NCBI GenBank assembly: GCA_036444215.1
Contig: JAZGAA010000006.1
Coordinates: forward strand, 1-59,942
Source: Minisyncoccota bacterium
Lineage (GTDB): Bacteria; Patescibacteriota; Minisyncoccia; UBA6257; UBA9933
DNA: 59,942 nt
Reading direction: 5' to 3'
In this document: positions 15,016 to 47,297 of the stretch, one piece after another
Position numbering within the stretch: the stretch's first letter is position 1
Layout: each line of letters opens with the position of its first letter
The notes under the pieces: generated by a model
The model's input: only the letters and a program-made list of their open reading frames with translations
Told to the model about the DNA's origin: nothing
Database searches by the model: none
Translations under genes and position numbers: made by a program

Positions 15016-15115
15016 ATAGAAGGCGGACTGCGTCCGTGCTCCGACGCTGAAGCTTTGGTGCAAGAGTCTGAAACCCGGCGAAGCCCGACTTCGCCAAGGC
15101 TTCGTCGGGTGAAAG

Positions 15116-19365: not shown

Positions 19366-21927
19366 ATGGATTACAATTTTTATTTTAAAGAACCAAGATT
19401 AGAAATGGCAGCTCCCACCCGTTTTTTAGTGCGTCTGATTTCTTACTGTTTTTATGCGATTTTGGCAGCAGCAGCAGCAACTTTTTTACTGTCCGATATT
19501 AAATTGCTTTTTTGGCTGGGTATTTTATTGTTTTTGTTTTTAATTGACCGGTTAATTCATTTTAGTCAGGCCGAAAGGTCATTGGTTGGTTTGTTGCGTC
19601 GTTTGCCGCGGCCCTCGCGCCGGGATTTGGGAAAAGCAAAAAAGGCGCCGCAATCAACCCATATTAACATAGCCGGTTATTTAACGCCAAGCAGTTTAAG
19701 TATTTTAGAAAGAGCTTTTAGTAAAAGTTTAATACTTGACGGCGATTTTCATCTTTATTTACTAAGGTTTTTATTTGAGCGCAAGGAAATTCAGGAAGGG
19801 CTTTTGCGAATGGATATTTCATTAAAAGAATTTAAACAAAGAATTGAAGAGCAGATAAATAAATCTTCGGGCACGGTTGTTAAAAATAAATCAGAAACGC
19901 TTGGAATGGTTGAATCTTTAGTAAGGAAATCTTTTGAACTCGCTTTAGCCAATAAAAGTCGTTTTATTGAACCGCCGGAGATATTTTCGGCCTTAGCTCT
20001 TGTTAATGACGAGAAAATCAACCGACTTTTTAATTTATTTTCTATTAACCCGGGCGATTTGGAAAAGGCCTTAATTTTTAGCCGTTTTCAGAGGCGTTTT
20101 GCCGGATTAAGACGTCTGCCAATAACTTTGGGCGGGTTTATTGCCAAGCCTTACAGTCGAGTCAGACATCGGGTAATGAATCGGGCTTGGACAGCCAGGC
20201 CTACACCGCTCCTTGATGATTTTAGTATTGATTTTACTGATTTAGCCAGAAGAGAAAAAATTGGTTTTTTAATTGGCCATCAGCAGGGATATGACCGTTT
20301 GGTTAATATTCTGGCGCGGTTGACCAAACCCAACGCTTTATTAATCGGAGAGCCGGGCAGCGGAAAAGAAACTATAGTAACTCACTTGGCTTTTAATTTA
20401 ATCAAAGATGAAGTGCCGGACAGGCTTTTTGACAAGAGATTAGTGGCTTTGCGTATAGGCGATTTAGTTTCCGGCGCTTCTCCTGAAGAGGTGTCAAAAC
20501 GGCTTAATAGGATGGTTGAAGAAATTACGGCCGCCGGCAATATAATTCTTTATATTCCAGACATTCATAATTTAGTAAAAACTTCCGGTGAGGGATATTT
20601 AAGCGCGGCTGATATTTTGATGCCGATAATCAGAAACGATATTTTTCCTGTTATCGGCGATACTTTTCCCAGGGAACATAAACAACTTATTGAAACCCAA
20701 AGCGACTTTGCCCACGCTTTTGAACTTATTAGAGTTGAAGAGGTTAGCGAAGATGAAGCTATCAGAATTCTTACTTACAGCAGCATTATTTTAGAGAAAC
20801 AATATAAACTTATTGTCAGTTTTGGAGCTGTCAAACAATCGGTAATTTTGGCTCATAAATATTTCCGTCATAAACTTTTACCTTCCAGCGCCGAAGATTT
20901 ACTTAAAGAGGCCCTGGCCGACGCCAACCAGAAAAAGGAGAAAGTTTTAAGCGCCGATATGGTCATAACAATTGCCGAACGCAAGACAAATATTCCTATT
21001 CATCGGGCTGGCAAAGAAGAAGCGGAGAAGTTGTTGAATCTTGAAGAAATTATTCACCAGCGATTAATTAACCAGAACGAAGCGGTTAAAGCAGTTTCCC
21101 GGGCACTCAGAGAATATCGCAGCGGCTTAAGCCGAAAAGGCGGACCGATTTCCACTTTTTTATTTGTCGGTCCGACCGGTGTTGGTAAAACCGAATTATC
21201 AAAAATTTTATCCAGTATTCAGTTTGGCTCAGAAGATTTAATGGTCAGGTTTGATATGTCAGAGTATCAGACCAAGCAGAGTATTTTTAGGTTTATCGGT
21301 TCAGCGGACGGGAAAATCGCCGGTACTTTAACCGAAGCCATTATCCAGAAACCATACAGTTTGATTTTATTGGATGAATTTGAAAAAGCCCACCCGAACA
21401 TTTTGAATTTATTCTTGCAGGTTTTTGATGACGGCCGGTTAACTGACAGCTTGGGTAGAACCGTTGATTTTCAGAATACGATTATTATCGCCACTTCCAA
21501 TGCTCATTCTGATTTTATTAAGACGCAAATTGAAGCTGGCGAAAATATTGAGGAAATTGCCAAAGAATTAAAGAAAAAATTAACCGATTATTTCCGTCCG
21601 GAACTGCTCAACCGTTTTTCTTCGGTAATTGTTTTTAAAAATCTTTCTAGGGATGATATTAAGGCAATTGCCCAGCTTAAGCTTAAGGGCTTGGCAAGAA
21701 CCGTTGAAGAAACTCAGGGAATTAGTTTGGTTTTTGATGTGGCAGCAGTTAATAGAATCGCAGAGCTTGGCTATGACCCGGTTTTCGGAGCCAGGCCCTT
21801 GCGAGGCGTTATTTCTGATAAATTGCGCAGTGTTTTAGCGGAAAAAATATTAAAAGGAGAGATAACAAAGGGTAGTACTATTAAGATAGCATTCGAGGAT
21901 AGCGAGATAAAATTTATTATCGCATGA
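19366..21927 (+). CDS. membrane-anchored Clp/Hsp100-like AAA+ protein (ClpC/ClpB-related) with a degenerate first ATPase module
   Basis: Two N-terminal TM helices and Clp_N-like repeats. D1 reads GEPGSGKE / ILYIPDIH where Walker A/B are expected. D2 is canonical: GPTGVGKTE, LLDEFEKAH, ATSNA. Confidence 0.8.
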   Translation: MDYNFYFKEPRLEMAAPTRFLVRLISYCFYAILAAAAATFLLSDIKLLFWLGILLFLFLIDRLIHFSQAERSLVGLLRRLPRPSRRDLGKAKKAPQSTHINIAGYLTPSSLSILERAFSKSLILDGDFHLYLLRFLFERKEIQEGLLRMDISLKEFKQRIEEQINKSSGTVVKNKSETLGMVESLVRKSFELALANKSRFIEPPEIFSALALVNDEKINRLFNLFSINPGDLEKALIFSRFQRRFAGLRRLPITLGGFIAKPYSRVRHRVMNRAWTARPTPLLDDFSIDFTDLARREKIGFLIGHQQGYDRLVNILARLTKPNALLIGEPGSGKETIVTHLAFNLIKDEVPDRLFDKRLVALRIGDLVSGASPEEVSKRLNRMVEEITAAGNIILYIPDIHNLVKTSGEGYLSAADILMPIIRNDIFPVIGDTFPREHKQLIETQSDFAHAFELIRVEEVSEDEAIRILTYSSIILEKQYKLIVSFGAVKQSVILAHKYFRHKLLPSSAEDLLKEALADANQKKEKVLSADMVITIAERKTNIPIHRAGKEEAEKLLNLEEIIHQRLINQNEAVKAVSRALREYRSGLSRKGGPISTFLFVGPTGVGKTELSKILSSIQFGSEDLMVRFDMSEYQTKQSIFRFIGSADGKIAGTLTEAIIQKPYSLILLDEFEKAHPNILNLFLQVFDDGRLTDSLGRTVDFQNTIIIATSNAHSDFIKTQIEAGENIEEIAKELKKKLTDYFRPELLNRFSSVIVFKNLSRDDIKAIAQLKLKGLARTVEETQGISLVFDVAAVNRIAELGYDPVFGARPLRGVISDKLRSVLAEKILKGEITKGSTIKIAFEDSEIKFIIA

Positions 21928-23660
21928 TTAATCAGGAAATCGCTAAAATTTTTTATGAAATTGCCCAATATTTGGAAATGGATGAAGTTGCTTTTAAGCC
22001 GCAGGCGTATGAAAAAGCAGCGCTGAATTTGGAAACTCTATCAGATGATGTTGAAGAAATTTATAAAAAAGGCGGTGTTGCAGCGTTGGAAAAAATTTCC
22101 GGTATAGGCAAGGCATTAGCAAAAAAAATCGTTGAGTATATAAAAACAGGGAAAATCAAAACACTCAAAAAACTCAAAAAGAAAACACCTGTAAATATTG
22201 AAGAATTAACAGCAGTTGAAGGATTAGGGGTTAAAAGAATCAAAATTTTATATAAAAAACTTGGAATAAAAAATTTAAAGGACTTAGAAAAAGCGGCAAA
22301 TAAAAATAAAATTTCTCCTTTAGCCGGTTTTGGCGAGAAAACAGAAAATAATATTTTAGATGGCATAAAATTTTTAAAAAGAAACAAAGGAAGATTTCTT
22401 TTGGGCGAAATTTTGCCTAACGTTTACAAGATTATTAATGAATTAAAAAAAGTAAAAGAAGTTAAAAAAATCTCTGAAGCCGGTTCAGTGAGGCGCAGAA
22501 AAGAAACTATTGGCGATGTTGATATTTTAATTGCCAGTCATAAACCTAAAAAAGTAATTAATTATTTTGTGTCTATGCCAGGCGTTGTTAGGGTTTGGAG
22601 TAAAGGGCCAACTAAGGCGTCTGTGCGTTTGAAAAAAGGATTTGACGCTGATTTAAGGGTTTTACCCGAGAAACAATTCGGTTCAGCTTTGCAATATTTT
22701 ACCGGCTCAAAAGAGCATAATATTGTTTTGAGAAAAATCGCCATTAATAAAGGTTTTAAACTTAATGAATATGGTTTGTTTAAAGGAAAAAAAATGATTG
22801 CTGGAAAAACCGAAGAAGAAATTTATAAAAAATTAGGAATGTCTTATATAGAGCCGGAATTACGCGAAAATCAAGGCGAAATTGAACTTGCCCTGAGTTC
22901 GCCGAAGGGGTTGCCAAAACTAATTAAACTAAATAATATTAAAGGCGACTTTCATTGTCATTCGCACTGGGGCGCTGGCAAAGGTAAACAAGGAATTGAA
23001 AATTTAGTTAAAACAGCTTTTGAGATTGGCTATAAATATATTGGTATAGCTGACCACACCAAGTTTTTGGCAATTGAACACGGTTTAAACGAAAAACAAT
23101 TAGCCCAACAGAGGAAATATATTAATAAATTAAATTCTAGATTCCAGATTCTAAATTCTAGATTCTCTATATTACAAGGTTGTGAGGCCAATATAATGGC
23201 GGACGGCTCAATAGACATAAAAGACGAAGTATTGGCTAAATTAGATTTTGTTATTGCCGGAGTTCATTCTCAGCTTAAAATGCCTAAAGAAAAAATGACT
23301 GAAAGAATTATTAAGGCAATGAGAAATCCTAATGTTGATATAATTTCTCATCTTACAGGAAGGGTTATTCAGCATCGTGATGAATGCGAAATTGATTTTG
23401 ATAAAATATTAAAAGTCGCCAAAGAAACAGGCACGATTTTAGAAATTAACGCTTATCCTGTGCGTCTTGATTTAAAAGACATAAATATCAGAAAAGCCAA
23501 AGAAATGGGCGTAAAGATGATTATTAACACGGACGCTCATCAGTCAGAACAGATGTATTTTATGGATTACGGAGTCAGTCAAGCCCGCCGCGGCTGGGCA
23601 GAGAAAAAGGATATTGTTAATTGTTTGCCAGTGGAAAAATTATTAAAAATGTTAAAATAG
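21924..23660 (+). CDS. polX: DNA polymerase X family protein with C-terminal PHP domain
   Basis: HhH motifs (ISGIGKALAKKI, VEGLGVKRI), GSVRRRKETIGDVDIL nucleotidyltransferase motif, PHP motifs GDFHCHS and NTDAH. Confidence 0.88.
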   Translation: MINQEIAKIFYEIAQYLEMDEVAFKPQAYEKAALNLETLSDDVEEIYKKGGVAALEKISGIGKALAKKIVEYIKTGKIKTLKKLKKKTPVNIEELTAVEGLGVKRIKILYKKLGIKNLKDLEKAANKNKISPLAGFGEKTENNILDGIKFLKRNKGRFLLGEILPNVYKIINELKKVKEVKKISEAGSVRRRKETIGDVDILIASHKPKKVINYFVSMPGVVRVWSKGPTKASVRLKKGFDADLRVLPEKQFGSALQYFTGSKEHNIVLRKIAINKGFKLNEYGLFKGKKMIAGKTEEEIYKKLGMSYIEPELRENQGEIELALSSPKGLPKLIKLNNIKGDFHCHSHWGAGKGKQGIENLVKTAFEIGYKYIGIADHTKFLAIEHGLNEKQLAQQRKYINKLNSRFQILNSRFSILQGCEANIMADGSIDIKDEVLAKLDFVIAGVHSQLKMPKEKMTERIIKAMRNPNVDIISHLTGRVIQHRDECEIDFDKILKVAKETGTILEINAYPVRLDLKDINIRKAKEMGVKMIINTDAHQSEQMYFMDYGVSQARRGWAEKKDIVNCLPVEKLLKMLK

Positions 23661-24665: not shown

Positions 24666-24832
24666 AGATATTTTTTAATAAGTTTTTTACTGGCATCAAG
24701 ACCGCGATTCCCCTTTTTTCGTTTGAGCTGGACACTTCTTTTTTTGGCGCGAAAATGGCACTGGCCCATTGTTCGCCTTATAATTTTTCCTGTTTTTGTG
24801 ATTTTGATTCGATTTGAAATACTTTTTTTCAT
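24662..24832 (-). CDS. rpmI: 50S ribosomal protein L35 (not in the ORF track, 56 aa)
   Basis: My translation is MKKSISNRIKITKTGKIIRRTMGQCHFRAKKRSVQLKRKKGNRGLDASKKLIKKYL. ATGA overlap with rplT. Confidence 0.85.
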   Translation of the reverse strand: MKKSISNRIKITKTGKIIRRTMGQCHFRAKKRSVQLKRKKGNRGLDASKKLIKKYL

Positions 24833-24856
24833 AATTCATTATTCTTGATTCATTAT

Positions 24857-25411
24857 TCATTTTTTAGCTATCTGCACTACCAACCCTCTGCCAATAAACT
24901 TCGGCTCCATAATAATTTTGTATTCAACTGTTATAATCTTTAAGAATTCATCCAGTTTTTGGCGAGCCCAGCTTCTATTATATTTTTCTCTGCCTCTTAA
25001 CCAGAGCATTATCTCAACTTTATGCCCTTCATCCAAGAATTTTTCCAATTTTTTTACTTTTGTTTGTAAATCATTCAGGGCGGCCCTTGCGCTGATGCGG
25101 ATTTGTTTTAATTCACCTACTTTTTGAGCTGTTTTCTGCTTTTTTAACTCTTTTTCTTTCTGGTATCTGAATTTATCAAAACTTATTATTTTGGCAACAG
25201 GCGGTTTGGCAGTCGGAGCGATTTCTATTAAGTCCAACCCTTTTTCTTGAGCCAATTTTAATGCCGCCTCTCGCGGCATTATATCCAGATTATTTCCGAT
25301 TTCATCAATAACTCTTAATTCTTGGGCAATTATTTGGTCATTAACACGATTCTTTGGTTTGCTGAATCGGTCGTTTTTCTTAAATCTGCCCCTAATTCGT
25401 TTTTTTATCAT
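24857..25411 (-). CDS. infC: translation initiation factor IF-3
   Basis: INDQIIAQELRVIDEIGNNL plus conserved C-terminal domain. Operon position upstream of rpmI-rplT. Confidence 0.92.
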   Translation of the reverse strand: MIKKRIRGRFKKNDRFSKPKNRVNDQIIAQELRVIDEIGNNLDIMPREAALKLAQEKGLDLIEIAPTAKPPVAKIISFDKFRYQKEKELKKQKTAQKVGELKQIRISARAALNDLQTKVKKLEKFLDEGHKVEIMLWLRGREKYNRSWARQKLDEFLKIITVEYKIIMEPKFIGRGLVVQIAKK

Positions 25412-25430: not shown

Positions 25431-25775
25431 TGGAGATGGGGGTATTGAAACCCCGTCCAAAGATTGTCCAAAAAAATTTCTACAAGCTTAGCCTAATTAG
25501 AATTAAGAATTAAGAAGTATGAATTAAGCAAAACCCTCTTAATCCTTTGCCGAAAGTGTTCTCACTAAAATTGGCAATTTAAGCGAGTAAGCTCAAAATA
25601 TTACACCCAGTTCTTCAACTTGAGCAATTAAAGGTGGATGCTGCTTTAAGCAAAAGCTAAAGCAGGTGCTAATCTGTTTTTTGCAGATATAGTTTAACTC
25701 GGTGATTTGCGAGGTAACGAGTCATCCTCGGCTTGCAATTTTTTTAAAAGATCTCCGTCGAAGCCTTACATCCCC
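25431..25775 (-). ncRNA. ssrA: tmRNA (SsrA), one-piece
   Basis: 5' GGGGATGTAAGGCTTCGACGG pairs with 3' ...GGACGGGGTTTCAATACCCCCATCTCCA, including a G3:U pair. Tag ORF GCAAAAAACAGATTAGCACCTGCTTTAGCTTTTGCTTAA encodes AKNRLAPALAFA* (25646-25684). Lies directly downstream of smpB. Confidence 0.88.
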
Positions 25776-25854: not shown

Positions 25855-26292
25855 CTACTTAATTATTTTTCTAATCTCTCGTTCTACTTCTCGTTTTTTT
25901 ATCAATTCTCGCTTATCTCTCTTTTTTCGGCTCTTTGCCAATCCAATTTCTATCTTAATTCTGCGATTCTTAGTATAAACCTTTAGAGGCACCAAAGTCA
26001 ATCCTTTTTCCTGGGTCCTGCCGATTAGATTTTTAATCTCAGATGTTTGAAGCAGCAGCCGGCGGGTCCTTTTGGAATCATAATCTTCGGGCATATTCTT
26101 TGGTTGATAAGGAGGTATGTCTGCATTAAGAAGCCAGGCCTGATTATCCCGGATAACAGCATAAGACCCGGCAAGATTTATTCTGCCGGTTTTTATGGAC
26201 TTAACTTCAAATCCTTTTAATTCAATCCCTGCCTCAAGCGTTTCTAAAATTTGATAGTCAAAATATGCGCGTTTATTGGTAGTAATAGCCAT
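25855..26292 (-). CDS. smpB: SsrA-binding protein SmpB
   Basis: NKRAYFDYQILETLEAGIELKGFEVKS and basic C-terminal tail. Confidence 0.95.
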   Translation of the reverse strand: MAITTNKRAYFDYQILETLEAGIELKGFEVKSIKTGRINLAGSYAVIRDNQAWLLNADIPPYQPKNMPEDYDSKRTRRLLLQTSEIKNLIGRTQEKGLTLVPLKVYTKNRRIKIEIGLAKSRKKRDKRELIKKREVEREIRKIIK

Positions 26293-26305
26293 TGTTTTTA
26301 GTATA

Positions 26306-27973
26306 ATGAATACAATGGTTAAAGTAAAAATTATTAATTATCTTAAAGAAGTTGTTAAAGAACCTGTGTCAATTGAAGTTTTCGTGCCGGATAATGAAAA
26401 ATTCGGGCATTATTCCACAAATGTCGCTTTGAAATTGGCAAAATTACGCAAGCAGAATTCGATGACTGTTGCTGAAGAGATTAAAAGCGTACTATCACGC
26501 GTAGTAGTAAAAGATTTTTTTAAAAAAATTGAGATTGCTCCTCCGGGATTTATAAATTTCTGGCTGTCAGAAAAAACTCTACAAGATAAAATAAAAGAAA
26601 TTTTGAAGAAAGAAAAGAAATACGGCCAACAACTAAAAGCTAAAAGCTCAAAGCTAAAAGCTATTAGCATTGAATTTATTTCCGCTAATCCTACTGGACC
26701 TTTGACTATTGGCAATGGCAGGGGAGGTTTTTTGGGTGATGCATTGGCAAATATTTTGAAATTTCAAGGAAATAAAGTAGTAAAGGAATATTATATTAAT
26801 GACGCTAAAGCAAGCACTCAGATTAGAGAATTAGGGAAAACGGCGGTTGGAATCGGTAAAAGCTACAAAACAAAAGATTTAGAATTAAAAATCAAAAAAT
26901 TAGGGCCAAAGAAAGCCAAAAATTACAGCGACGCTGGATATTTGCTTGCGAAAATAATCCAAGAAGATAACAAGAAGTTTATTGAAAATAAATTAAAAAT
27001 AAAATTTGACAAATGGTTCAGCGAAGAAAACCTGTATAAAAGTGGAGCTGTTGAAAAGTTGCTGGGAGAATTAAAAAAGAAAAATTTAATTTACAAAAAA
27101 GACGACGCTATATGGTTTAAATCAAAACAATTTGGCGATAACGAAGACAGGGTTTTGGTACGGCAACCCCGCGTAGCGGGGCAAGCAGGAGAACCGACAT
27201 ATTTTTTGCCGGATCTTGCTTATCATTTAAATAAATTCAAAATTCGTAAATTTAACAAAGTTATAGATATTTGGGGAGCTGACCACCATGGTTACAGTCC
27301 TCGGCTTAAAGCCGGTCTTAAAGCTTTTGGTATAGCTGATGAAAAACTCAAAATTATCATTAGCCAATTAGTCCGTTTAATTAAAAAAGGCAAAGAAACG
27401 AAAATGTCAAAAAGAAAAGGAGAGTATGTGAGCTTGGAGGAATTAATAGATGAGGTTGGTTTGGACGCGGCGCGATTTTTCTTTTTAATGTATTCGCCGA
27501 ATACTCATATGGATTTTGATTTGGATTTGGCAAAAGAGAAATCATTAGAGAACCCGGTTTATTATGTGCAATACGCTGCCGTAAGATGCGATAGCATACT
27601 CAAAAAACCCAAATTCCAAAGCCCAAATTCCAAACAAATTCCAAAGCCCAAATTCCAAAACCTAAAATTATTAAACACAAAAGAGGATTTAAATTTAATA
27701 CGGATGTTGGTGAGGTTTCCGGAAATTATTGAAGAAGCAGCGCAAAATTACAGCCCGCAAATTTTAGTGCGATATTCTTTGGATTTAGCGCGGCAATTCC
27801 ATAATTTTTACGAAAAAGAACACATCATCGCGGACCTGCGCGGACTTAACGCGGACCAATACAGACAAAGTATGGATTTTATGTTTGCGCGTTTGGCTTT
27901 AATTCAGGCAACATTAGTAATTTTTAAAAATACATTCAACCTTTTGGGCATCACATTGCCGAAGAAAATGTAG
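26306..27973 (+). CDS. argS: arginyl-tRNA synthetase
   Basis: SANPTGPLTIGNGRG (HIGH region), DHHGY, MSKRKG (KMSK). ATG at 26306 or 26315 preferred over the 26276 start that overlaps smpB. Carries four in-frame repeat insertions. Confidence 0.9.
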   Translation: MNTMVKVKIINYLKEVVKEPVSIEVFVPDNEKFGHYSTNVALKLAKLRKQNSMTVAEEIKSVLSRVVVKDFFKKIEIAPPGFINFWLSEKTLQDKIKEILKKEKKYGQQLKAKSSKLKAISIEFISANPTGPLTIGNGRGGFLGDALANILKFQGNKVVKEYYINDAKASTQIRELGKTAVGIGKSYKTKDLELKIKKLGPKKAKNYSDAGYLLAKIIQEDNKKFIENKLKIKFDKWFSEENLYKSGAVEKLLGELKKKNLIYKKDDAIWFKSKQFGDNEDRVLVRQPRVAGQAGEPTYFLPDLAYHLNKFKIRKFNKVIDIWGADHHGYSPRLKAGLKAFGIADEKLKIIISQLVRLIKKGKETKMSKRKGEYVSLEELIDEVGLDAARFFFLMYSPNTHMDFDLDLAKEKSLENPVYYVQYAAVRCDSILKKPKFQSPNSKQIPKPKFQNLKLLNTKEDLNLIRMLVRFPEIIEEAAQNYSPQILVRYSLDLARQFHNFYEKEHIIADLRGLNADQYRQSMDFMFARLALIQATLVIFKNTFNLLGITLPKKM

Positions 27974-28002: not shown

Positions 28003-31000
28003 ATGGAAGAAAAAATTTTAAAATTTTGGCAGGAAAATCAAATCTTTGAGAAATCCGTTGAGAAAGATGCGCCTCGCGGTGATTTTGTTTTTTATGACGG
28101 TCCGCCTTTTGCCACAGGAAGTCCTCATTACGGCCATATTTTGGCAAGCATTATAAAAGATGTCATTCCAAGATACCAAACAATGAAAGGTAAAAGAGTT
28201 CCGCGTAAATGGGGTTGGGATTGTCATGGTTTGCCAATTGAGAATTTAATTGAGAAAAATCTAAATCTTCAGAGCAAAAAAGACATTGAAGAATACGGAA
28301 TTGAAAAATTCAATAAAGCAGCTCAAGAAAGCGTTCTTCAATACGCTGATGAATGGAAAAAAATTATTTCAAGAATAGGAAGGTGGGTTGATATGGAAAG
28401 AGATTATAGAACAATGGATTGGAAATATACTGAATCGGTTTGGTGGGTTTTTAAAAAACTTTACGATAAAGGGCTTATTTACGAGGGATATAAATCAATG
28501 CATATTTGTCCGCGCTGCGAAACTACTTTATCTAACTTTGAGATTACACAGAATTATCAGGACATTAAAGATATATCAGCTACGGTTAAGTTTGAGCTGG
28601 AAGACGAGCCGGGTACTTTCATTCTGGCTTGGACAACTACGCCATGGACTCTGCTGGGGAACGTCGCTTTAGCTGTTAATCCTGATATAGAGTATAGAAA
28701 AGTTAAATCAGGAGAAAGTTTTTTTATCGTTGCCGAAAAACGATTAGCGGCATTATTTCCATTTAAAGGAGAAACTGTGCTACATAAATTTTTTAAAGGC
28801 AAAGAACTTGTTGGCAAAAAATACAAACCACTTTTTGATTATTACACAAAAGATAAAGATTTAGAGAATCGTGAGAACGGCTGGAAAATTTACAGCGCGG
28901 ATTTCGTAACAATTGAAGAAGGAACTGGCGTTGTTCATATTGCTCCTGCTTTTGGTGAAGATGATATGAATTTGGGGCAAAAAGAAAAATTGCCTTTTAT
29001 TCAGCATGTTGCAATGGATGGAAAATTTAAGAAGGAGGTTAGGGAATTCGTTGGCCTTTCAGTAAAGCCAAAATCTGAACATCAATCAACTGACGTAGAA
29101 ATTATTAAATACCTTGCTAAAAATAATAAACTTTTCTCTAAAGAATCAATAACTCATTCCTACCCGTTTTGCTGGCGGTGTGACACTCCGTTGTTAAATT
29201 ACGCAGCAAACTCATGGTTTGTAGAAGTAGATAAGATTAAAAAGAAACTAATAAAGAATAATAAGAAGATAAATTGGGTGCCATCGCATTTAAAATACGG
29301 TCGTTTTGGTAAATGGCTTGAAAACGCCCGCGACTGGGCTATTTCTCGTTCAAGGTATTGGGGCGCTCCTTTGTCTATTTGGAAATGTGAAGAATGTAAA
29401 AAAATAAAAACAATCGGCTCAATTAACGATTTAAAAAAAGAATCCAAAAAATCCAAAAACAGATATTTTGTAATACGTCATGGAGAATCAGAAAGTAATG
29501 CTCAAAATATTGTTAGTTCAAAATTAGAAACCAGCTCTAAACATCCGCTTACGGAAAAAGGAAAAAAAGAAGTCAAAGAAACAGCTAAAAAATTAAAAAG
29601 CGAAAATATTGATTTGATTTTTTCTTCTGATTTTACTCGTACTAAAGAAACTGCTGAAATTGCGGCAGATAATTTGGGTATTAGTAAGGATAAAATAATT
29701 TTTGATAAACGCCTTCGCGAAGTAAATACCGGCATTTTTGACGGCAAAAAACCTGAAGAATATAAAGCTTATTTTTCCTCTCTTGAAGAAAAATTTTTCA
29801 AAACTCCTCCTGAAGGCGAGAATTTAATGGAACTCAAGAATAGGGTGAGCGAATTTTTGTACGTTCTTGAGAGTAAATATTCAGATAAGAATATTTTAAT
29901 TATTAGCCATGAGTATCCGATTTGGCTTTTATTTGCCGGTGCTAACGGGTTCAATAGCAAAGAGTCAGTTGAAATCAGAAAAGACAAACCCGATTTTGTT
30001 AAAACAGGTGAAATAAGAAAATTAGATTTTGTTCCTTTACCGCATGATAAGAATTATGTTTTAGATTTACACAGGCCGCATATTGATAATATTGAGTTTC
30101 AATGTTCTTGCGGCGGAGCTATGAACCGCGTACCAGAAGTTTTTGACTGCTGGTTTGAGTCCGGTTCAATGCCTTACGGACAGGCGCATTATCCTTTTGA
30201 AAACAAAAAAGAATTTGAGAAAAATTTCCCGGCGGAATTTATTGCAGAAGGAATTGATCAAACAAGGGGTTGGTTTTATACATTACTTGTTCTTTCAACT
30301 GCTTTATTTAATAAACCAGCTTATAAAAACGTAATTGCGAATGGAATTATTTTGGCGGAAGATGGTCAAAAAATGAGTAAGCGTTTAAATAATTATCCGG
30401 ATCCAACAGAAATTATTAATAAATATGGAGCTGATGCGCTTCGTTATTATCTTCTTTCTTCACCGGCAGTGCGTGGCGAGAGTTTGAATTTTTCCGAAAA
30501 AGGAGTTGATGAAATTAATAAAAAAGTGGTTTCAAAATTAAGAAATGTTTTATCTTTTTATAAGATGTATGGTTTGGGACTAAAAACCGAAAACCAAAAA
30601 CTAAAAGCTAATAATGTTTTAGATAAATGGATTTTAGCGAAATTTAATATTTTAACAAAAGACGTTTCAGAAACACTTGATAATTATGAGTTAGACAGGG
30701 CAGTTAGGCCGATAGGGAATTTTGTTGATGATTTGTCTAATTGGTATGTGAGGCGGTCGCGAGAAAGGTTTAAGAGCGAAAGCCAAGATAAAGATAACGC
30801 TTCTGCGACGTTGAGTTATATTTTAATTGGGTTTTCTAAAATAATCGCGCCATTTATGCCGTTTGTTGCGGAGGAAATATACCAGGAATTTACAATAGAG
30901 AAAGGGAGCGTGCATTTAGAAGAGTGGCCTCAAGGCAAAGAAACATTAAAAGAAGACAAAAAGATTTTAGATGAAATGAAAGAGGCAAGAGAAAATATCG

Positions 31001-31449
31001 TATCTATTGCTATGGAGCAAAGGCAAAAAGCGGACATTGGAGTGAGGCAAGTGCTAAGCGTTTTTAATACAACATCTTCTATTACAAATACTGATATTCT
31101 CGAAACTGTTTTAAAAGAAATTAACGTAAAAGAAATAAAAACTAACCAAAAAGAAAATAAATTAGACATAATTATTACCCCTGAATTAAAAAATGAAGGC
31201 GTTGTTCGCGAATTTGTCCGCAAAGTTCAGGATTTGCGCAAAAAAGCCGGCTATCAACCAAAAGACAAAATTTATTTATGGATTGAAACCTTAAGCGAGA
31301 CAGAAAGCATATTAAACAAGAACATTGATAAATTCAAAAAAGATATTGGCGCTAAATCTATTGAGTTTAGGCGAACTGAAAAATTTGACGCAGAATTAGA
31401 AAGTAAAATTAACAGCGAAAAAATCTGGCTCGGAATTAAGAAAATATAA
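28003..31449 (+). CDS. ileS: isoleucyl-tRNA synthetase (type 2/eukaryote-like) with an inserted histidine-phosphatase domain
   Basis: PPFATGSPHYGH (HIGH), editing-domain WTTTPWTL, GIDQTRGWFYTL, KMSKRL. Residues ~485-685 carry RHGES...SSDFTRTKETA...ISHE histidine-phosphatase motifs. Confidence 0.92.
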   Translation: MEEKILKFWQENQIFEKSVEKDAPRGDFVFYDGPPFATGSPHYGHILASIIKDVIPRYQTMKGKRVPRKWGWDCHGLPIENLIEKNLNLQSKKDIEEYGIEKFNKAAQESVLQYADEWKKIISRIGRWVDMERDYRTMDWKYTESVWWVFKKLYDKGLIYEGYKSMHICPRCETTLSNFEITQNYQDIKDISATVKFELEDEPGTFILAWTTTPWTLLGNVALAVNPDIEYRKVKSGESFFIVAEKRLAALFPFKGETVLHKFFKGKELVGKKYKPLFDYYTKDKDLENRENGWKIYSADFVTIEEGTGVVHIAPAFGEDDMNLGQKEKLPFIQHVAMDGKFKKEVREFVGLSVKPKSEHQSTDVEIIKYLAKNNKLFSKESITHSYPFCWRCDTPLLNYAANSWFVEVDKIKKKLIKNNKKINWVPSHLKYGRFGKWLENARDWAISRSRYWGAPLSIWKCEECKKIKTIGSINDLKKESKKSKNRYFVIRHGESESNAQNIVSSKLETSSKHPLTEKGKKEVKETAKKLKSENIDLIFSSDFTRTKETAEIAADNLGISKDKIIFDKRLREVNTGIFDGKKPEEYKAYFSSLEEKFFKTPPEGENLMELKNRVSEFLYVLESKYSDKNILIISHEYPIWLLFAGANGFNSKESVEIRKDKPDFVKTGEIRKLDFVPLPHDKNYVLDLHRPHIDNIEFQCSCGGAMNRVPEVFDCWFESGSMPYGQAHYPFENKKEFEKNFPAEFIAEGIDQTRGWFYTLLVLSTALFNKPAYKNVIANGIILAEDGQKMSKRLNNYPDPTEIINKYGADALRYYLLSSPAVRGESLNFSEKGVDEINKKVVSKLRNVLSFYKMYGLGLKTENQKLKANNVLDKWILAKFNILTKDVSETLDNYELDRAVRPIGNFVDDLSNWYVRRSRERFKSESQDKDNASATLSYILIGFSKIIAPFMPFVAEEIYQEFTIEKGSVHLEEWPQGKETLKEDKKILDEMKEARENIVSIAMEQRQKADIGVRQVLSVFNTTSSITNTDILETVLKEINVKEIKTNQKENKLDIIITPELKNEGVVREFVRKVQDLRKKAGYQPKDKIYLWIETLSETESILNKNIDKFKKDIGAKSIEFRRTEKFDAELESKINSEKIWLGIKKI

Positions 31450-32373: not shown

Positions 32374-33693
32374 ATGCACATAATTAACAAAAAAGAACTA
32401 TCAAGAACTCCTTTACGAGAAAAGGCGCTTTTGATTGCTGAAGCGGGTTATGACGCGATTGATATTGAGAAAGCAGTTAGTCAAAAAATAAAATTTCAGA
32501 ACAATAAGTTGTCTATCGCCAAGGGTATTACCGGAGAATATTTAGAATTTGATTTAAGTGATTATAAAAAAGTTTTTCTTATTGGTATTGGCAAAGGGTC
32601 TTCACTTGCCGTAATGACATTGGCAGGGATTTTAGCGCCTTTAGGTTCACGGTTTTCAGGCGGTATAGCCCTGGATATTAAAATCCCAAATAAATCCCAA
32701 AGCTCAAATTCCAAAATAGAATTTTTAACAGGCACGCATCCTATTCCGTCAAAACAAAATATTGAAGCCACTCAAAAAATTATTAAATTAGTAAAAAGCT
32801 TAGATGAAAACGATTTACTCATTGCTTTTATTTGCGGAGGCGGTTCAGCTTTGTTTTGCTGTTCAGAACAGGAATCAGAAGAATCAGCTTTGGCTATAAA
32901 ATTTTTAACAAAAGCCGGAGCTGATATTTTTGAATTAAATACAATTCGCAAGCATTTATCAGAGTGTAAGGGCGGCGGATTGGCAAAAACCGCTTATCCG
33001 GCAACTGTAATTTCTTTAATTGCGTCAGATGTTTGCGGCAATGATTTATCCATAATAGCTTCCGGTCCTACGGTTTTTGACGAAACTACTAAAAAGGATG
33101 CTGAAAAAGTTTTACAAAAATATGAATTAGATTTAAATCAATTTCATTTATCCGAGACCCCTAAAGACAAAAAATATTTTGAGAAAGTTAAAAACATTCT
33201 TTTTGTTTGTAATCAGGATGCGATTTCAGCAATGGTTGAAAAGGCGAAAGAAATCGGCTTTGAGCCGAGAATTTATTCTTTGGAATTGCGAGGTGAGGCG
33301 AAAGATGTGTTAATACCGATGATTAAAGAAGTGAAGTCCGGCGAGGCGATTTTGGCTGGCGGAGAAACAACGATTACCTTAGGCAGCGGACCAACAGGCA
33401 AAGGCGGACGAAATATGGAATCTGTTTTAGGCGCAATAACTAATTTTCAAGAGGTACTACCCCACGGGGTAGTAGCGCTTTCAATGGCAAGCGATGGCCG
33501 TGATAACACCGAGGCCGCTGGCGCGATTGTTGATGCTTCAACCCAAGAAAAAACAAAAGAATTGGGTTTGAGTCCAGAAGAATTTTTAGAAAACCATAGT
33601 TCGTTTAATTTTTTTGAAAAAACCGGAGATTTAATTTTTACCGACCAAAAGAGTTTCAACATAGCGGATTTGATGGTAATATTAAAGATATGA
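32374..33693 (+). CDS. glycerate 2-kinase (DUF4147/MOFRL family)
   Basis: GIGKGS, GGGSAL, KHLSECKGGGLA and GGETTITL...GKGGRNMES motifs. Confidence 0.75.
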   Translation: MHIINKKELSRTPLREKALLIAEAGYDAIDIEKAVSQKIKFQNNKLSIAKGITGEYLEFDLSDYKKVFLIGIGKGSSLAVMTLAGILAPLGSRFSGGIALDIKIPNKSQSSNSKIEFLTGTHPIPSKQNIEATQKIIKLVKSLDENDLLIAFICGGGSALFCCSEQESEESALAIKFLTKAGADIFELNTIRKHLSECKGGGLAKTAYPATVISLIASDVCGNDLSIIASGPTVFDETTKKDAEKVLQKYELDLNQFHLSETPKDKKYFEKVKNILFVCNQDAISAMVEKAKEIGFEPRIYSLELRGEAKDVLIPMIKEVKSGEAILAGGETTITLGSGPTGKGGRNMESVLGAITNFQEVLPHGVVALSMASDGRDNTEAAGAIVDASTQEKTKELGLSPEEFLENHSSFNFFEKTGDLIFTDQKSFNIADLMVILKI

Positions 33694-36095
33694 AGCCTTT
33701 TATCAAAAAATTTGAAGAAGTGAGTATGAAGAATGTTTCCGAGGTGGGCGGGAAGAACGCTTCGCTTGGCGAAATGATTCAGAATTTAGTTCCTAAAGGA
33801 ATTAATATTCCAAGCGGTTATGTTATTACGGCCAGCGCTTATCGTTATTTTCTTCAGAAAACCGATTTAAAAAAATTTATTAAGAAAACTATACAAGGAT
33901 TAGATACAAGAAATCTTCACGATTTGGCTAGGTGTGGAAAACTTATCCGCGAAGCAATTAAACAATCCGAATTTCCAAAGGATTTAACAAGAGCGATTAT
34001 TACTGCTCATCGCAGGGCTGAAAAGAAATACGGCAAGAATGCTGATTTTGCGGTTCGTTCCAGCGCCACGGCCGAGGATATGCCTGGAGCCAGTTTTGCT
34101 GGGCAGATGGAAACTTATCTAAACGTTCGCGGCGAGGAAAATATCTTAAAAGCCGTGCGAGCAGCCATGGCTTCTCTTTTTACTAATCGTGCTATTTCTT
34201 ATAGAAAGGATAAAGGATTTGACCACTTTAAGGTGGCGCTTTCAGTTGGCGTTCAGAAAATGGTGCGTTCGGATTTAAGCTGTTCAGGTGTTTTGTTTAC
34301 TTTAGATACAGAATCCGGTTTTCCTGATTTGGTTTTAATTAACGGTTCTTGGGGATTGGGCGAGATGATTGTTCAGGGCGAAGTAACTCCGGACGAATTT
34401 TTGGTTTTTAAAAAGACAGGCGCGATTATCGGCAAAGAGCTTGGAATGAAAAGGAGAAAGATGATTTACGGCAAAGGGAATAAGCCAACCAAAGTTATTT
34501 CTACCTCACAAAAAGAAAGAGAATCATTTATTTTATCTGATAATGAAATTTCGCAACTGGCCAAATGGGGAATGTTGGTTGAAGAGCATTATTCAAAGAG
34601 AAATAAAGGCAAGTGGACTCCGATGGATTTAGAATGGGCAAAAGACGGAAAAACCAAAGAGATGTTTGTTGTTCAGGCTCGCCCAGAGACAGTCCATGCT
34701 TTGCGGGATTTTTCAAAAATTAAGGAGTATAAGTTGGTAAGCACTAAACCTAATACCATAAACCCTAAACCCATCGTCATCGGCGCCTCTGTTGGCAGTA
34801 AAATTGCCGTTGGTAAGGCAAGGGTTATTTTAGATACAAAGAAGATTAAAGAATTTAAAGCAGGAGAAGTTTTAGTTACCGGTATGACAGATCCTGATTG
34901 GGAGCCGATAATGAAAATTGCTTCAGCAATTGTAACGGATAAAGGAGGTCGGACAAGTCACGCCGCAATAGTAAGTCGTGAACTCGGCATTCCCTGTATT
35001 GTTGGTTCGGAAACCGCCACTAAAAAAATTAAAACTGGCCAGACAATTACCGTTGATACTACCGGCAGTGATGGGTTTGTTTATGATGGCGCTTTGAAAT
35101 TTAAAATAACAGAACACAATGTTAAAAAAATACCAAAACCAAAGACAAAAATAATGATGAATATTGCCACACCAGAAACAGCTTTTGAAAAATCATTTTT
35201 ACCCAATGAAGGCGTAGGGTTGGCAAGAGAGGAATTTATTATTGCCAGCGATATTGGTATTCACCCAATGGCAATTATTGAATACCAAAAACTTAAAAAT
35301 TCAAAGCTAAAAGCACAAATAAATAAAAAAACTATTGGATGGAAAGATAAAAAGCAATTTTACATTGATAAACTCGCTTTTGGGATTGCGAAAATCGCAG
35401 CAGCTTTTTATCCTAAGCAGGTAATTGTTCGCTTTTCTGATTTTAAGACAAACGAATATCGTTCGCTGGTTGGTGGTGAAATTTACGAGCCAGTTGAAGA
35501 AAATCCAATGCTTGGTTGGAGAGGAGCTTCCAGATATTATCACCCTAATTTTGCGCCGGCATTTGTCTTAGAGGTTAAAGCAATTAAAAAAGTCCGTGAA
35601 AATATGGGATTAGATAATGTGGAAGTAATGATTCCATTTTGTAGGACAGTTGAAGAAGGTAAAAAGGTTTTGCAAATAATGGCAAAAAACGGACTAAAAA
35701 CTAAAAGCTCAAAGCTAAAAACTTACGTGATGTGCGAGATTCCTTCTAATGTGGTTTTAGCTGACGAATTTTTGAAAGTTTTTGATGGAATGAGTATTGG
35801 CTCAAACGATTTAACGCAATTAACCGTAGGAATTGACCGCGATGGCAATGAGCAAATCCGCAGTATTACTAATGAGAAAGACGAATCAGTTAAAAAACTA
35901 ATTGCAGAAGTTATTAAAAAATGCCTCGCTAAAAAGAAATATATCGGAATTTGCGGTCAGGCTCCATCCGACTTTCCGGAATTCGCTGAATTTTTGGTTG
36001 AGCACGGAATTGAAAGCATTTCCTTGAATCCAGACACAGTAGTTAAAACAACTCAAAAGATTTACCAAAAAGAGAAGAAATTACGAAAGAAATAG
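33690..36095 (+). CDS. ppsA: phosphoenolpyruvate synthase (pyruvate, water dikinase)
   Basis: VGGKNASLGEM, RSSATAEDMPGASFAGQ, phosphohistidine GGRTSHAAIVSRELGIP, C-terminal PEP-utilising IGSNDLTQ. Confidence 0.93.
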   Translation: MKPFIKKFEEVSMKNVSEVGGKNASLGEMIQNLVPKGINIPSGYVITASAYRYFLQKTDLKKFIKKTIQGLDTRNLHDLARCGKLIREAIKQSEFPKDLTRAIITAHRRAEKKYGKNADFAVRSSATAEDMPGASFAGQMETYLNVRGEENILKAVRAAMASLFTNRAISYRKDKGFDHFKVALSVGVQKMVRSDLSCSGVLFTLDTESGFPDLVLINGSWGLGEMIVQGEVTPDEFLVFKKTGAIIGKELGMKRRKMIYGKGNKPTKVISTSQKERESFILSDNEISQLAKWGMLVEEHYSKRNKGKWTPMDLEWAKDGKTKEMFVVQARPETVHALRDFSKIKEYKLVSTKPNTINPKPIVIGASVGSKIAVGKARVILDTKKIKEFKAGEVLVTGMTDPDWEPIMKIASAIVTDKGGRTSHAAIVSRELGIPCIVGSETATKKIKTGQTITVDTTGSDGFVYDGALKFKITEHNVKKIPKPKTKIMMNIATPETAFEKSFLPNEGVGLAREEFIIASDIGIHPMAIIEYQKLKNSKLKAQINKKTIGWKDKKQFYIDKLAFGIAKIAAAFYPKQVIVRFSDFKTNEYRSLVGGEIYEPVEENPMLGWRGASRYYHPNFAPAFVLEVKAIKKVRENMGLDNVEVMIPFCRTVEEGKKVLQIMAKNGLKTKSSKLKTYVMCEIPSNVVLADEFLKVFDGMSIGSNDLTQLTVGIDRDGNEQIRSITNEKDESVKKLIAEVIKKCLAKKKYIGICGQAPSDFPEFAEFLVEHGIESISLNPDTVVKTTQKIYQKEKKLRKK

Positions 36096-36559: not shown

Positions 36560-37798
36560 ATGAAAATTACAGACGTTAATATTAAAATCATTTCAGATTC
36601 TCGCGGCAAAGAAACATTGGAAGCGGAATTAAAAACCGCGGATATTTCTGTATCCGCAAGCGTGCCAGCCGGCAAAAGCACTGGAACGCATGAGGCGTTT
36701 GTTTTAGAGCCAAAAAACGCTCTAAAAAAATTTGAAGAAATAAAAAGCAAAGTTTTAGGACAGGATTTTAACAAACAGGAAGATTTTGATAATTTTTTAA
36801 TTTCTTTAGATGGCACTTCTAATAAACAAAATCTTGGAGGTAATTTGATTTTAGCTTTGTCTTTGTCTTGGGCAAGATTGAAAGCAAAAAATGAAGGGAA
36901 AGAATTATTTCAATATATAAATAAGGAACTAGGAACTAGTAATCAGGAAATAGGAACGCCGAGGCCGGTTTTTAACGTTATTAACGGTGGAGTGCACGCT
37001 ACCCATCCAAAGTCAAAGTTAGAATTTCAGGAATTCCAAGTAATACCAAGCGTAGAAGATTTTGGCATTGCTTTAAGTGTTGGCAGGGAATTTTACCGCA
37101 AACTTCAAACATTGTTGGAAAATAAATTTGGCAAGGAAAATATTTCTTTGGGTGATGAAGCCGGCTTTTCAGCTCCATTCAAAAATAATGAAGAAGCAAT
37201 TGAAGTTTTGGCTGAATTAATAGATAAGCATAGTTATCCTTTAAGGATTGGATTGGATATAGCAGCTTCACAATTTTACAAATCAGGCGGATTTCTTAGA
37301 GAATCAGGGTATGTTGTTGACGGCAAGAAACACTCAGTAGAAGAACTAAAAGATTTATATTTAAAATTGATTGAAACGTATAATATTTTATCAATTGAAG
37401 ACCCTTTTTATGAGGAATCATTTGATTCATTCGCTTCGCTCACCGCGGACTCACGCGGACTGGACGCGGATAGACGCGGACTATTAGTGATAACGGACGA
37501 TTTAACAACCACTAATCCAGAACGTTTAAAAACAGCAATTAATAAAAAATCCGGCAACGCAATTTTAATAAAATTAAATCAGATAGGAACATTAACAGAA
37601 ACTCTAAAAGTTGTTAAACTGGCTTATGAGAATAACTGGCAGGCAATAGTTTCGCACAGGAGCGGCGAAACAATGGATGATTTTATTGCTGATTTGGCTG
37701 TTGGTATTAACGCATGGGGCATTAAAGCCGGCGCGCCGGCAAAACCGGAAAGATTAATAAAATACGAACGAGTTTTGGAGATAGTTGATAAAAAATAA
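36560..37798 (+). CDS. eno: enolase (divergent)
   Basis: IISDSRGKETLE, SVPAGKSTGTHEA, NVINGG, GDEAGF, SIEDPF, DDLTTTNP, IKLNQIGTLTE, SHRSGET. Start at the ATG preceded by aaaaagga. Confidence 0.9.
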   Translation: MKITDVNIKIISDSRGKETLEAELKTADISVSASVPAGKSTGTHEAFVLEPKNALKKFEEIKSKVLGQDFNKQEDFDNFLISLDGTSNKQNLGGNLILALSLSWARLKAKNEGKELFQYINKELGTSNQEIGTPRPVFNVINGGVHATHPKSKLEFQEFQVIPSVEDFGIALSVGREFYRKLQTLLENKFGKENISLGDEAGFSAPFKNNEEAIEVLAELIDKHSYPLRIGLDIAASQFYKSGGFLRESGYVVDGKKHSVEELKDLYLKLIETYNILSIEDPFYEESFDSFASLTADSRGLDADRRGLLVITDDLTTTNPERLKTAINKKSGNAILIKLNQIGTLTETLKVVKLAYENNWQAIVSHRSGETMDDFIADLAVGINAWGIKAGAPAKPERLIKYERVLEIVDKK

Positions 37799-41023: not shown

Positions 41024-41044
41024 TGCTACCACAAGTGGTAGCAG
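41024..41044. repeat. 21-bp palindromic repeat tgctaccacaagtggtagcag (left copy)
   Basis: Identical 21-mer recurs at 41762-41782. The core gctaccac-aa-gtggtagc is self-complementary. Confidence 0.9.
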
Positions 41045-41744: not shown

Positions 41745-41782
41745 ACTACCACTTGTGGTAGTGCTACCACAAGTGGTAGCAG
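41745..41782. repeat. two abutting copies of the ctaccac-NN-gtggtag palindrome (right copies)
   Basis: actaccacttgtggtagt followed by tgctaccacaagtggtagcag. Overlaps the -35 region of a TATAAT (41798-41803) upstream of the acylphosphatase gene. Confidence 0.9.
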
Positions 41783-43917: not shown

Positions 43918-43956
<39 letters not shown>

Positions 43957-44126
43957 GGCCGGCGAGGCCGTTGAAATAGAACCTGAAACCATATGCTTAC
44001 AAGGAGACGGAGCCCGCAAGGGTGACGTCGTGCCTATTGAAGAATGAGCCAACGAGTTTATGTATATCGCTAGTTTAAATCCTACGGGATGAAAGCGTAG
44101 GGAAACCGAGTGTTAAAAGCGCGTAT

Positions 44127-44295
44127 GCCAGTGCTTCGCACTGGAAATTCCAAATTCCAAATCTCAAATCACAAATAAATCTCAAATCCCAATTTTCAAA
44201 ATTCCAAACACGTTTTGGTCATTTGAATTTTGGTTATTGATGCTTGTTTGTTATTTGGTGCTTGTTATTTGGTGCTTCCAATGCGCAGTATTGGT
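44127..44295 (+). repeat. 169-nt hairpin insertion at the 23S helix-25 position (IVS-like), copy A
   Basis: Interrupts ...GAGTGTTAAAAGCGCGTAT | TGGCGGTATGTGTAAGACCCGAA. Terminal mini-hairpins gccagtgcttcgcactgg and ccaatgcgcagtattgg. A/C-rich arm faces a G/T-rich arm. Confidence 0.85.

Positions 44296-47253: not shown

Positions 47254-47297
<44 letters not shown>

Follow-up and report, generated by a model that had tools for sequence, protein, structure and literature searches.

Heptanucleotide tandem arrays read through essential genes in a Patescibacteria chromosome

The shared 20-mer and its arrays

Why would two unrelated genes on one bacterial chromosome carry the same 20 nucleotides (nt) in the same codon phase? 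The question is raised by a 59,942-nt chromosomal stretch of a Patescibacteria (candidate phyla radiation, CPR) bacterium (assembly GCA_036444215.1, contig JAZGAA010000006.1), called the window here, which has ~36% G+C and holds a transfer-messenger RNA (tmRNA), tRNAs, housekeeping genes and a 23S rRNA gene spanning 4.2 kb. A sequence-only reading had drawn attention to a perfect 20-nt string common to the genes for arginyl-tRNA synthetase (ArgRS; open reading frame (ORF) 26276-27973, + strand) and phosphoenolpyruvate (PEP) synthase (PpsA; ORF 33690-36095, + strand), both identified by Pfam and PDB matches. We find that this 20-mer is the common core of two heptanucleotide tandem arrays belonging to a dispersed family, that is, of translated microsatellites; the string noticed at the outset is real, while its 7-nt tandem structure and its genome- and clade-wide extent had been overlooked.

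The 20-mer, CTAAAAGCTCAAAGCTAAAA, is present exactly twice in the window (26640-26659 and 35701-35720), against 0.03 matches expected from dinucleotide-preserving shuffles, and is the longest dispersed exact repeat there once the rRNA segmental duplication and one 21-nt palindrome are set aside. Both copies are read in equal codon phase, as had been claimed, giving QLKAKSSKLKAI in ArgRS and GLKTKSSKLKTY in PpsA. The ArgRS array, (CTAAAAG)x4.4 at 26633-26663 (+), is divided into the heptamers CTAAAAG CTAAAAG CTCAAAG CTAAAAG CTA and into the codons caa CTA AAA GCT AAA AGC TCA AAG CTA AAA GCT att, which encode Q LKAKSSKLKA I. The PpsA array, (CTAAAAR)x4.4 at 35693-35723 (+), consists of CTAAAAA CTAAAAG CTCAAAG CTAAAAA CTT and is read as gga CTA AAA ACT AAA AGC TCA AAG CTA AAA ACT tac, or G LKTKSSKLKT Y; its string starts at 35693, one position before the start first given. 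Over their full 31 nt the two arrays agree at 28 of 31 bases. The ArgRS array (site 1) falls in the linker that joins the N-terminal domain to the first Rossmann-fold strand, and the PpsA array (loop 2) lies in the loop directly before the strand YVMCE. Chance or composition as the source of the 20-mer or of the arrays is ruled out by the shuffles, and A-rich low complexity, which might have explained the string away, does not do so given the shuffles and the enrichment of period 7.

To place these arrays in their clade, the window was compared with fetched related loci (L-numbers), ~1.2 Mb of related sequence overall, including 74 de-duplicated CPR loci (1.06 Mb). The nearest relatives are Wolfebacteria or Paceibacteria-type metagenome-assembled genomes (MAGs), the closest being L131/L001, with protein identities of 86% for PpsA and 74% for ArgRS. 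Arrays were detected at fixed thresholds with TRF and a lag-7 self-match; the data are MAGs, and projection of the flanks between loci is approximate. The window contains 12-15 period-7 arrays where 0.2-1.1 are expected; the other enriched periods are the harmonics 14 and 21, with period 9 far weaker (3-7 versus 0.15-0.8). Across the CPR loci we counted 144 period-7 arrays, 101 at the harmonic 14 and 3-19 at each of the remaining periods from 3 to 15, and the small non-CPR control (100 kb of loci from the same query) yielded 2 period-7 arrays. Most of the 144 arrays (118; 82%) lie within open frames of at least 100 codons, and such frames make up 91% of the sequence, so genic arrays are nearly as common as chance predicts. 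In the window their hosts are genes for a Mur ligase, archease, a family X polymerase with a PHP domain (PolX), ArgRS (two arrays), IleRS, PpsA (two arrays) and enolase, and the non-protein-coding sites are the tmRNA, a duplicated 23S rRNA segment and spacers. At least 10 different units occur in the window; CTAAAAR-type units account for 4-5 arrays, and the others are CCCTAAA, ATTCTAG, TTCATTA, AGAATTA, AAGCCCA/AATTCCA, CTAAACC, AGGAACT, AAATTCC and ATTTGGA.

Translation leaves a clear mark on these arrays. Since 7 shares no factor with 3, all three frames of the unit are read within 21 nt of array, and because CTAAAAG holds TAA, a perfect (CTAAAAG)n array necessarily has an in-frame stop. 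In both ArgRS and PpsA the odd unit CTCAAAG changes that in-frame TAA to TCA through a single A>C substitution, which is the sole deviation in the ArgRS array; the odd base common to the two genes is thus forced by the in-frame TAA, with TCA as one of ~7 possible single-base fixes. The same pattern holds across the set: 39 coding arrays would, if perfect, hold an in-frame stop, and 44 of 102 deviations fall in would-be stop codons where 11 are expected. The stop patches in the window are TAT, CAA, CAG, TCA and TCA. Coding arrays prefer stop-free units, typically of the form A+T+C+, and non-coding arrays have stop-containing units in 19 of 26 cases.

Length is similarly constrained. Perfect period-7 runs are bimodal, with a second mode at 29-34 nt (24 arrays) and a maximum of 34 nt, and arrays beyond 34 nt are composites of two units, built from two arrays of ~31 nt. 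Among pairs of loci with flanks at least 95% identical, array length was the same in 80 of 81 cases, and where flanks were 100% identical all arrays were identical. Since lengths are stable between close strains, the arrays are not hypervariable contingency repeats; they also differ from phase-variable repeats in sitting in frame in essential housekeeping genes with no length polymorphism. We looked for strain-level variability in 7- or 21-nt steps and rejected it, all locus pairs at or above 93% identity showing only gaps of 1-5 nt and one of 19 nt; an apparent 7-nt polymorphism in an AATTTTC array proved to be a recombination mosaic, with the L087-type patch carried by L091. Simple growth by 21 nt from a local seed was likewise set aside, length differences being assorted multiples of 3 among which +21 was seen (L012, position 13263) without being dominant.

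Units turn over at fixed sites. Different, often related units occupy the same protein site in relatives at ArgRS sites 1 and 2, the PpsA linker, PolX and IleRS; at ArgRS site 1, for example, the window and L034, the latter with a TAC-like patch, have GCTAAAA, L009 a perfect GGTCAAA x4, L008 GCAAAGC, L002 GATTCAA and L064 CTAAAAC. Within arrays, unit variants form contiguous blocks in 51 of 69 informative columns versus 15 expected, a count that the array-detection procedure inflates, and in one close-strain pair a block boundary is displaced by one unit. A perfect 33-nt AATCTCA array is the same in L065, L067 and L007, whose flanks are only ~82% identical, and the window and L140 PpsA arrays are identical at 31 of 31 positions. 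Such identity across diverged flanks is what within-array homogenisation predicts, because an array then evolves as ~7 independent sites and not as 33; the preservation of identical perfect arrays across ~18% flank divergence points to concerted evolution. L140 carries the patched unit twice, 21 nt apart, as expected of a three-unit in-frame step.

The arrays could have entered their genes as inserts, as the sequence-only reading had proposed, and for PpsA this proved wrong. The array aligns gaplessly to Neisseria PpsA (PDB 2ols; NGLERGKNGLRLIMMCE versus nglktkssklktyvmce), and its loop length is modal among 50 CPR homologues (GL + 6 residues + LKVY), which excludes an insert there. The corresponding L131 loop is 9 residues longer and resembles a decayed array split by a decayed double hairpin. 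Replacement is also seen in L065 ArgRS, where a perfect AAATCTC array takes the place of a conserved N-terminal helix kept in L064 and the window. Some arrays are clean additions, such as one of +30 nt versus orthologues in L012 (position 10705), and ArgRS site 1 falls within a variable-length loop.

Scaffold gaps of 100 Ns were found in relatives' MAGs at L006 19253-19352 (PpsA loop 2) and L047 7407-7506 (ArgRS site 1), both being array sites in the window, and at L002 14521-14620, at the site of the PpsA motif at window position 35293. We considered deliberate masking and ruled it out, the N-runs being 100-N scaffold gaps; dispersed identical arrays probably break MAG assemblies. The arrays are themselves unlikely to be assembly artefacts, because they are shorter than one read and were found in independent assemblies.

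In ArgRS (~26700-26730) the class I HIGH signature reads TIGN (SANPTGPLTIGNGRGG); related CPR enzymes have PLTIG, PLTLA or PLTMG at this site and non-CPR homologues have PLHIG. Several Wolfebacteria PEP synthases (P0080-P0094, ~1211 aa) contain a LAGLIDADG (PF14528) insertion, presumably an intein, which the window PpsA lacks.

Origin of the shared module

What, then, links ArgRS to PpsA? At least six genomes carry the module CTAAAAG CTAAAAG CTCAAAG CTAAAAG CT(ATT), which occupies three protein sites that are not homologous to one another. The window has it in ArgRS, L137 and L138 have it in the PpsA linker, and loop 2 of PpsA holds it in the window, L139, L140 and L141. The PpsA proteins of these relatives are only ~75% identical to that of the window. 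The ArgRS module of the window matches the L137 and L138 linkers over 33 nt with one mismatch each, and L141 loop 2 is identical to the window ArgRS array at 30 of 31 positions. A second same-genome pair of arrays, in L123, has a 23-mer in common that includes the odd unit GGTGAAA among GGTTAAA units; by a frame derived by hand, GGTGAAA would remove a TAA in one reading frame.

The explanation we consider best, with slightly better than even confidence, is that a DNA process working in a 7-nt register writes and maintains the arrays, and that ArgRS and PpsA carry the same pre-patched module, spread by templated copying. In Paceibacteria-type CPR this process would generate arrays of 4-5 units (~30-34 nt) wherever they are tolerated, whether in the loops and linkers of essential proteins, in tmRNA where it is variable, in a 23S rRNA insertion or between genes. 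Length-neutral copying would keep adjacent units alike; the route we infer is slipped-strand pairing or template switching, accompanied by conversion and now and then by a step of three units (21 nt). The products would then be filtered by selection: frame would be maintained, and a unit giving an in-frame stop would need a one-base patch. The likeness of the two arrays would then stem from one pre-patched module, spread or homogenised between loci by short templated copying on CTAAAA microhomology and without cassette insertion, and the Lys/Ser-rich peptide would be a tolerated by-product. Copy-paste of a short unit, as the sequence-only reading had suggested, is plausible in this form, given the recurrence of the module at three non-homologous sites; its version by cassette insertion fails for the PpsA copy.

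A separate origin of each array in place is possible, although we judge it clearly less probable. Here 7-nt slippage and homogenisation at each site would have arrived at the same common unit and patch by coincidence, with nothing moved between loci. Many different units do occur at the same protein sites in relatives, patch types are diverse, and the PpsA loop already requires L-K at both ends, 21 nt apart. Nor is the same frame an independent coincidence, because any in-frame (CTAAAAG)n encodes a cyclic permutation of LKAKS*K. Identities of at least 20 nt between unrelated arrays occur in 31 of 10,266 between-genome pairs (0.3%), a rate that predicts ~0.2-1 such pair among the 78 array pairs of the window. 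Coincidence does not so readily give equal start, end and patch position across non-homologous sites, as in the 33-nt match of ArgRS with L137/L138 and the 30/31 match with L141, or a second pair within one genome such as that in L123 with its odd unit; and an array perfect but for its patch cannot arise perfect within an essential gene. With the odd base forced and identities of at least 20 nt not rare among arrays, direct copying between the ArgRS and PpsA arrays is likely, if unproven, and from these comparisons we would rank templated copying between arrays above pure parallelism. Insertion of ~31-33-nt cassettes by a mobile element or dedicated writing machinery seems unlikely. It would suit the quantised length of perfect arrays with its hard limit of 34 nt, the clean +30-nt addition in L012, the long arrays composed of two ~31-nt arrays and the presence of a truly mobile 30-nt element at the same sites (see below); against it, there are dozens of units with no single consensus, the arrays have no terminal repeats, target duplications or palindromy, many of them replace sequence instead of adding to it, and no transposase, reverse transcriptase or Cas genes were found in the window. 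Convergence at the protein level, or plain A-rich low complexity, in which Lys-rich flexible loops would settle on similar codons, is very improbable. The peptides are hydrophilic and lie in surface loops, and the genome has ~36% G+C, yet the shuffles do not reproduce the 20-mer, strong enrichment is confined to a period coprime to 3, arrays are found in tmRNA, rRNA and intergenic DNA as well, and stop-rich units are non-coding while stop-free ones are favoured in coding arrays. Codon choice in the PpsA loop agrees: the arrays consistently write Leu as CTA, a rare codon, and Ser as AGC/TCA, whereas the same residues are written TTA/TTG and TCC in L131. The original argument for a repeat at the DNA level, as opposed to protein convergence, is upheld on these grounds.

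Several observations weigh against templated copying in a 7-nt register. Neither the period of 7 nor the five-unit limit is accounted for. Among the close-strain pairs examined we found no birth, conversion or 7- or 21-nt change of an array, and the lengths of orthologous sites differ by various multiples of 3, without a predominance of 21. The within-genome rate of identities of at least 20 nt, 1.25% of pairs, is an excess of only ~3-4 fold that rests on 3-4 pairs. Patches other than TCA occur among CTAAAAR-family arrays (TAC, TAT, CAA, CAT and TTA), L139 has two arrays of the same unit with different patches, and one patch seen three times, given ~7 arrays and 7 options (~0.4), is not significant alone. 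The inflated block count and the smallness of the non-CPR control count on the same side.

Other arrays and small elements

The remaining arrays of the window show how widely the pattern extends. Shorter versions of the CTAAAA word run had been reported in archease, IleRS and PpsA, and those in archease and IleRS are genuine arrays of the CTAAAAR unit family. The third, at PpsA 35296-35320, is a conserved protein motif, KLKNSKLKAQINKK, present also in the closest relative L131, with a 12-14-mer in common with arrays. The archease array comprises a left part (AAAACCA/AAAACTT; 7076-7099, +) and a right part of the CTAAAAR family (7130-7171, +) that carries the stop patch CAA and encodes KTKSQKLKTKIKI. 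The IleRS array (AAAACYR/CTAAAAR family; 30579-30611, +) encodes LKTENQKLKAN; at the orthologous position L131 has an AAGTACC array of similar size, one codon longer. This IleRS (28003-31449) also has a histidine-phosphatase domain (His_Phos_1) inside its catalytic domain, at residues 489-654, a feature common to L131 and L140.

A second PpsA array (CTAAACC; 34744-34772, +) lies in the interdomain linker, where relatives have GTCAAAG, CTAAAAA, AAATCTC or the CTAAAAG/TCA module. The second ArgRS array, at the C-terminus, is a composite of eight units (AAGCCCA/AATTCCA; 27604-27659, +), ~6 codons longer than in L131, at a clade-wide array hot spot. Three further coding arrays lie in the Mur ligase (CTAAACC/CCCTAAA; 6317-6350, +; stop patch TAT), PolX (ATTCTAG; 23134-23166, +; stop patch CAG) and enolase (AGGAACT; 36924-36957, +); orthologous PolX sites have other units, and L033 is without an array. 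An array of TTCATTA (24828-24861) runs from the 3' end of infC into the spacer that follows and is identical at 34 of 34 positions in L001/L131. The tmRNA array (25499-25523, - strand; AGAATTA on the + strand) lies in the 3'-terminal pseudoknot region, on the 3' side of one of its helices; L001/L131 have an array with the same AGAATTA unit at this spot, and L004 has a similar array that may lie in tmRNA. Spacers contain an AGTAATC/AGGAATT array (50911-50941) and, upstream of a recO-like ORF, an ATTTGKR array (55286-55317) which overlaps, by its first 8 nt, the end of a putative ORF from the mechanical listing (54931-55293).

In the 23S rRNA gene (43366-47575), two arrays of AAATTCC/AAATCTC (44145-44208 and 44829-44892, both +) lie within the two copies of a 174-nt direct repeat (44122-44295 and 44806-44979) that are 97% identical and 684 nt apart. 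Each copy holds a heptamer array and a small hairpin, a ~680-nt segment goes with the repeat, and the gene has two group I introns (45659-45959 and 46348-46612).

A GC-rich palindromic mini-element of 30 nt, CCCGCCTTCGCCGAGGCTTCGGCGGGCAGG (7100-7129, +), splits the archease array with the phase exactly kept; it is read in frame as PPSPRLRRAG, and its excision restores a continuous array. The consensus of this element is CCCGCCTTCGCCAAGGCTTCGGCGGGCAAG, and two more window copies lie at 6484-6513 (in frame, Mur ligase) and 15084-15111. About 25 further sites were found in CPR loci L001-L131, in frame in unrelated housekeeping genes and yielding peptides such as PAFVKTSAGK and PPSPRLRRAG, and in one case (L007) within an array that L067 has uninterrupted. 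Compensatory changes occur in the stem of the element (CCCTCC/GGAGGG, TCCGCC/GGCGGA and CCCGAC/GTCGGG). With a consensus, a compensated hairpin and clean insertion, the CCCGCC...GGCGGG element (7100-7129, 6484-6513) resembles Rickettsia palindromic elements (RPEs), repetitive extragenic palindromic (REP) sequences and small dispersed repeats (SDRs); the heptamer arrays do not, being non-palindromic, of many units and, in PpsA, no insertion. Viral contigs gave only 4 exact matches to the element. Target-site duplications of 7 nt as a source of arrays were rejected, none flanking the element copies outside arrays. Nesting of hairpins in arrays is visible by direct inspection in several cases, and hairpins near arrays numbered 8 of 529 versus ~5 expected in a crude test in which interrupted arrays fall below the detection threshold; the co-location may reflect common permissive sites.

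We would also entertain, though as a doubtful extension, a lineage-specific DNA-writing activity that lays down ~31-33-nt quanta (4-5 copies of a 7-nt template), overwrites coding sequence and copies pre-patched modules from one locus to another, the arrays then becoming landing pads for the 30-nt element. This would amount to a two-tier micro-repeat system remodelling loops of essential proteins, tmRNA and rRNA. Candidate activities would be a repair or replication polymerase that slips reiteratively, or a pathway of patch repair by template switching. The PolX-PHP gene (21924-23660), itself an array host, is a candidate slippage-prone repair polymerase. As window-encoded machinery it was set aside, the gene being present too in array-free loci such as L014.

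Other small elements were seen alongside. A CGCGGAC repeat with 10-11-nt spacing occurs in frame at the ArgRS C-terminus (27829-27860) and in enolase (37439-37482), encoding ADLRGLNADQYRQS or ADSRGLDADRRGL. Compared with L131, each of the two window copies is inserted or replaces other sequence, and L131 has a recognisably homologous ~42-nt element at another enolase site (13683). Relatives contain two further palindrome families, a 30-nt in-frame double hairpin with TCCGCCnnnGGCGGA twice, encoding SAKGGSASGG, and a 16-nt in-frame palindrome, TCCGCCAGCTGGCGGA. Loci for these families are L012, L013 (for example, 8964-8993), L030, L037, L109, L110 and L123, and L001, L002, L004, L009, L063, L064 and others; both are often bordered by heptamer-array remnants. 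A 21-nt palindromic hairpin, TGCTACCACAAGTGGTAGCAG, occurs twice in the window (41024-41044 and 41762-41782), 738 nt apart.

Comparison with known repeats

Coding DNA is expected to lose repeats with a unit length not divisible by three; here such repeats occur in essential genes at near chance density and with a reproducible signature of quantised length, one-base stop patches and concerted evolution. If confirmed genome-wide, this would indicate that ultra-small bacteria, with their reduced repair repertoires, have a distinct regime of mutation or repair, and that conserved enzymes such as aminoacyl-tRNA synthetases, PEP synthase and enolase can have their loops remodelled rapidly by it. It would also bear on why heptanucleotides are the favoured long simple sequence repeat (SSR) of bacteria, a question made testable by many independent, datable arrays at orthologous sites. 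On a practical level, arrays of this kind can produce spurious shared motifs between unrelated proteins. We found no report in the literature of heptamer arrays in CPR/Patescibacteria, and the arrays appear to be an undescribed variant of bacterial heptamer repeats: translated, length-quantised, stop-patched and concertedly evolving. With heptanucleotide SSRs they share the tandem 7-nt unit and the over-representation of period 7, and they depart from them in not being predominantly intergenic, in having many units per genome and in lacking a wide copy-number range with length differences between strains.

The nearest precedents are the intergenic heptamer repeats of cyanobacteria and Xanthomonas. 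Short tandemly repeated repetitive (STRR) heptanucleotides of Calothrix and Nostoc were reportedly described by Mazel et al. in 1990 and by Vioque in 1997. Like the arrays here, the STRR and Nostoc heptamers are tandem 7-nt units with an excess of period 7 only, and STRRs can be found within the gene of a structural RNA, RNase P RNA, as the arrays here are found in those of tmRNA and 23S rRNA. STRRs differ in being mostly intergenic, with few fixed units per genome and up to 26 units, whereas in the window clade unit sequences number in the dozens, arrays have no more than 5 units and 82% of them lie in frame in ORFs of housekeeping genes. In Nostoc, G-rich GGGGAYT arrays are known (PMC4692102).

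Xanthomonas has GGGAATC arrays with a modal array of four units (Rehm et al. 2015, PMC4692102). For bacteria in general, an excess of heptanucleotide SSRs is attributed to Mrazek et al. 2007 in later accounts (PMC4692102, PMC4679880), and a 7-nt polymerase footprint has been suggested as the cause of heptamer slippage, an untested idea (PMC4692102). As here, heptamers are the favoured long-SSR class, with a modal array of four units and with orthologous positions kept while sequence and length change between species. Those repeats are, however, intergenic, G-quadruplex-capable and present in 2-26 copies, whereas the CPR arrays are A/T-rich, translated and stop-patched and have a hard length limit. 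TAACTGA direct repeats of Beggiatoaceae, cyanobacteria and Bacteroidetes (MacGregor 2015, PMC4679880) also form dispersed sets of 2-6 heptamers, in which unit stop codons restrict coding placement. They consist of a single unit, lie upstream of start codons and have a proposed regulatory role, unlike the many-unit CPR arrays in ORFs.

For the 30-nt element (7100-7129, 6484-6513) the closest parallels are palindromic. RPEs of 100-150 bp are said to have been described by Ogata et al. in 2000. Nostoc SDRs are also associated with heptamer repeats. RPEs and SDRs resemble the element in being selfish short DNA placed in frame in essential genes and in RNA genes; the heptamer arrays differ from RPEs in being non-palindromic and without a single consensus. 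In Nostoc, SDR5 is reported to be inserted precisely into HIP1 (Elhai et al. 2008).

Borg elements offer a last comparison. Their tandem repeats create disordered protein regions (PMC9879509). They are similar in being recent, perfect, in-ORF tandem repeats that add low-complexity peptide, and different in belonging to archaeal extrachromosomal elements and not to bacterial chromosomes. Borg arrays are reportedly longer, with in-ORF units that are multiples of 3 nt. The CPR arrays are set apart by their 7-nt unit, with every array read in all three frames of that unit.

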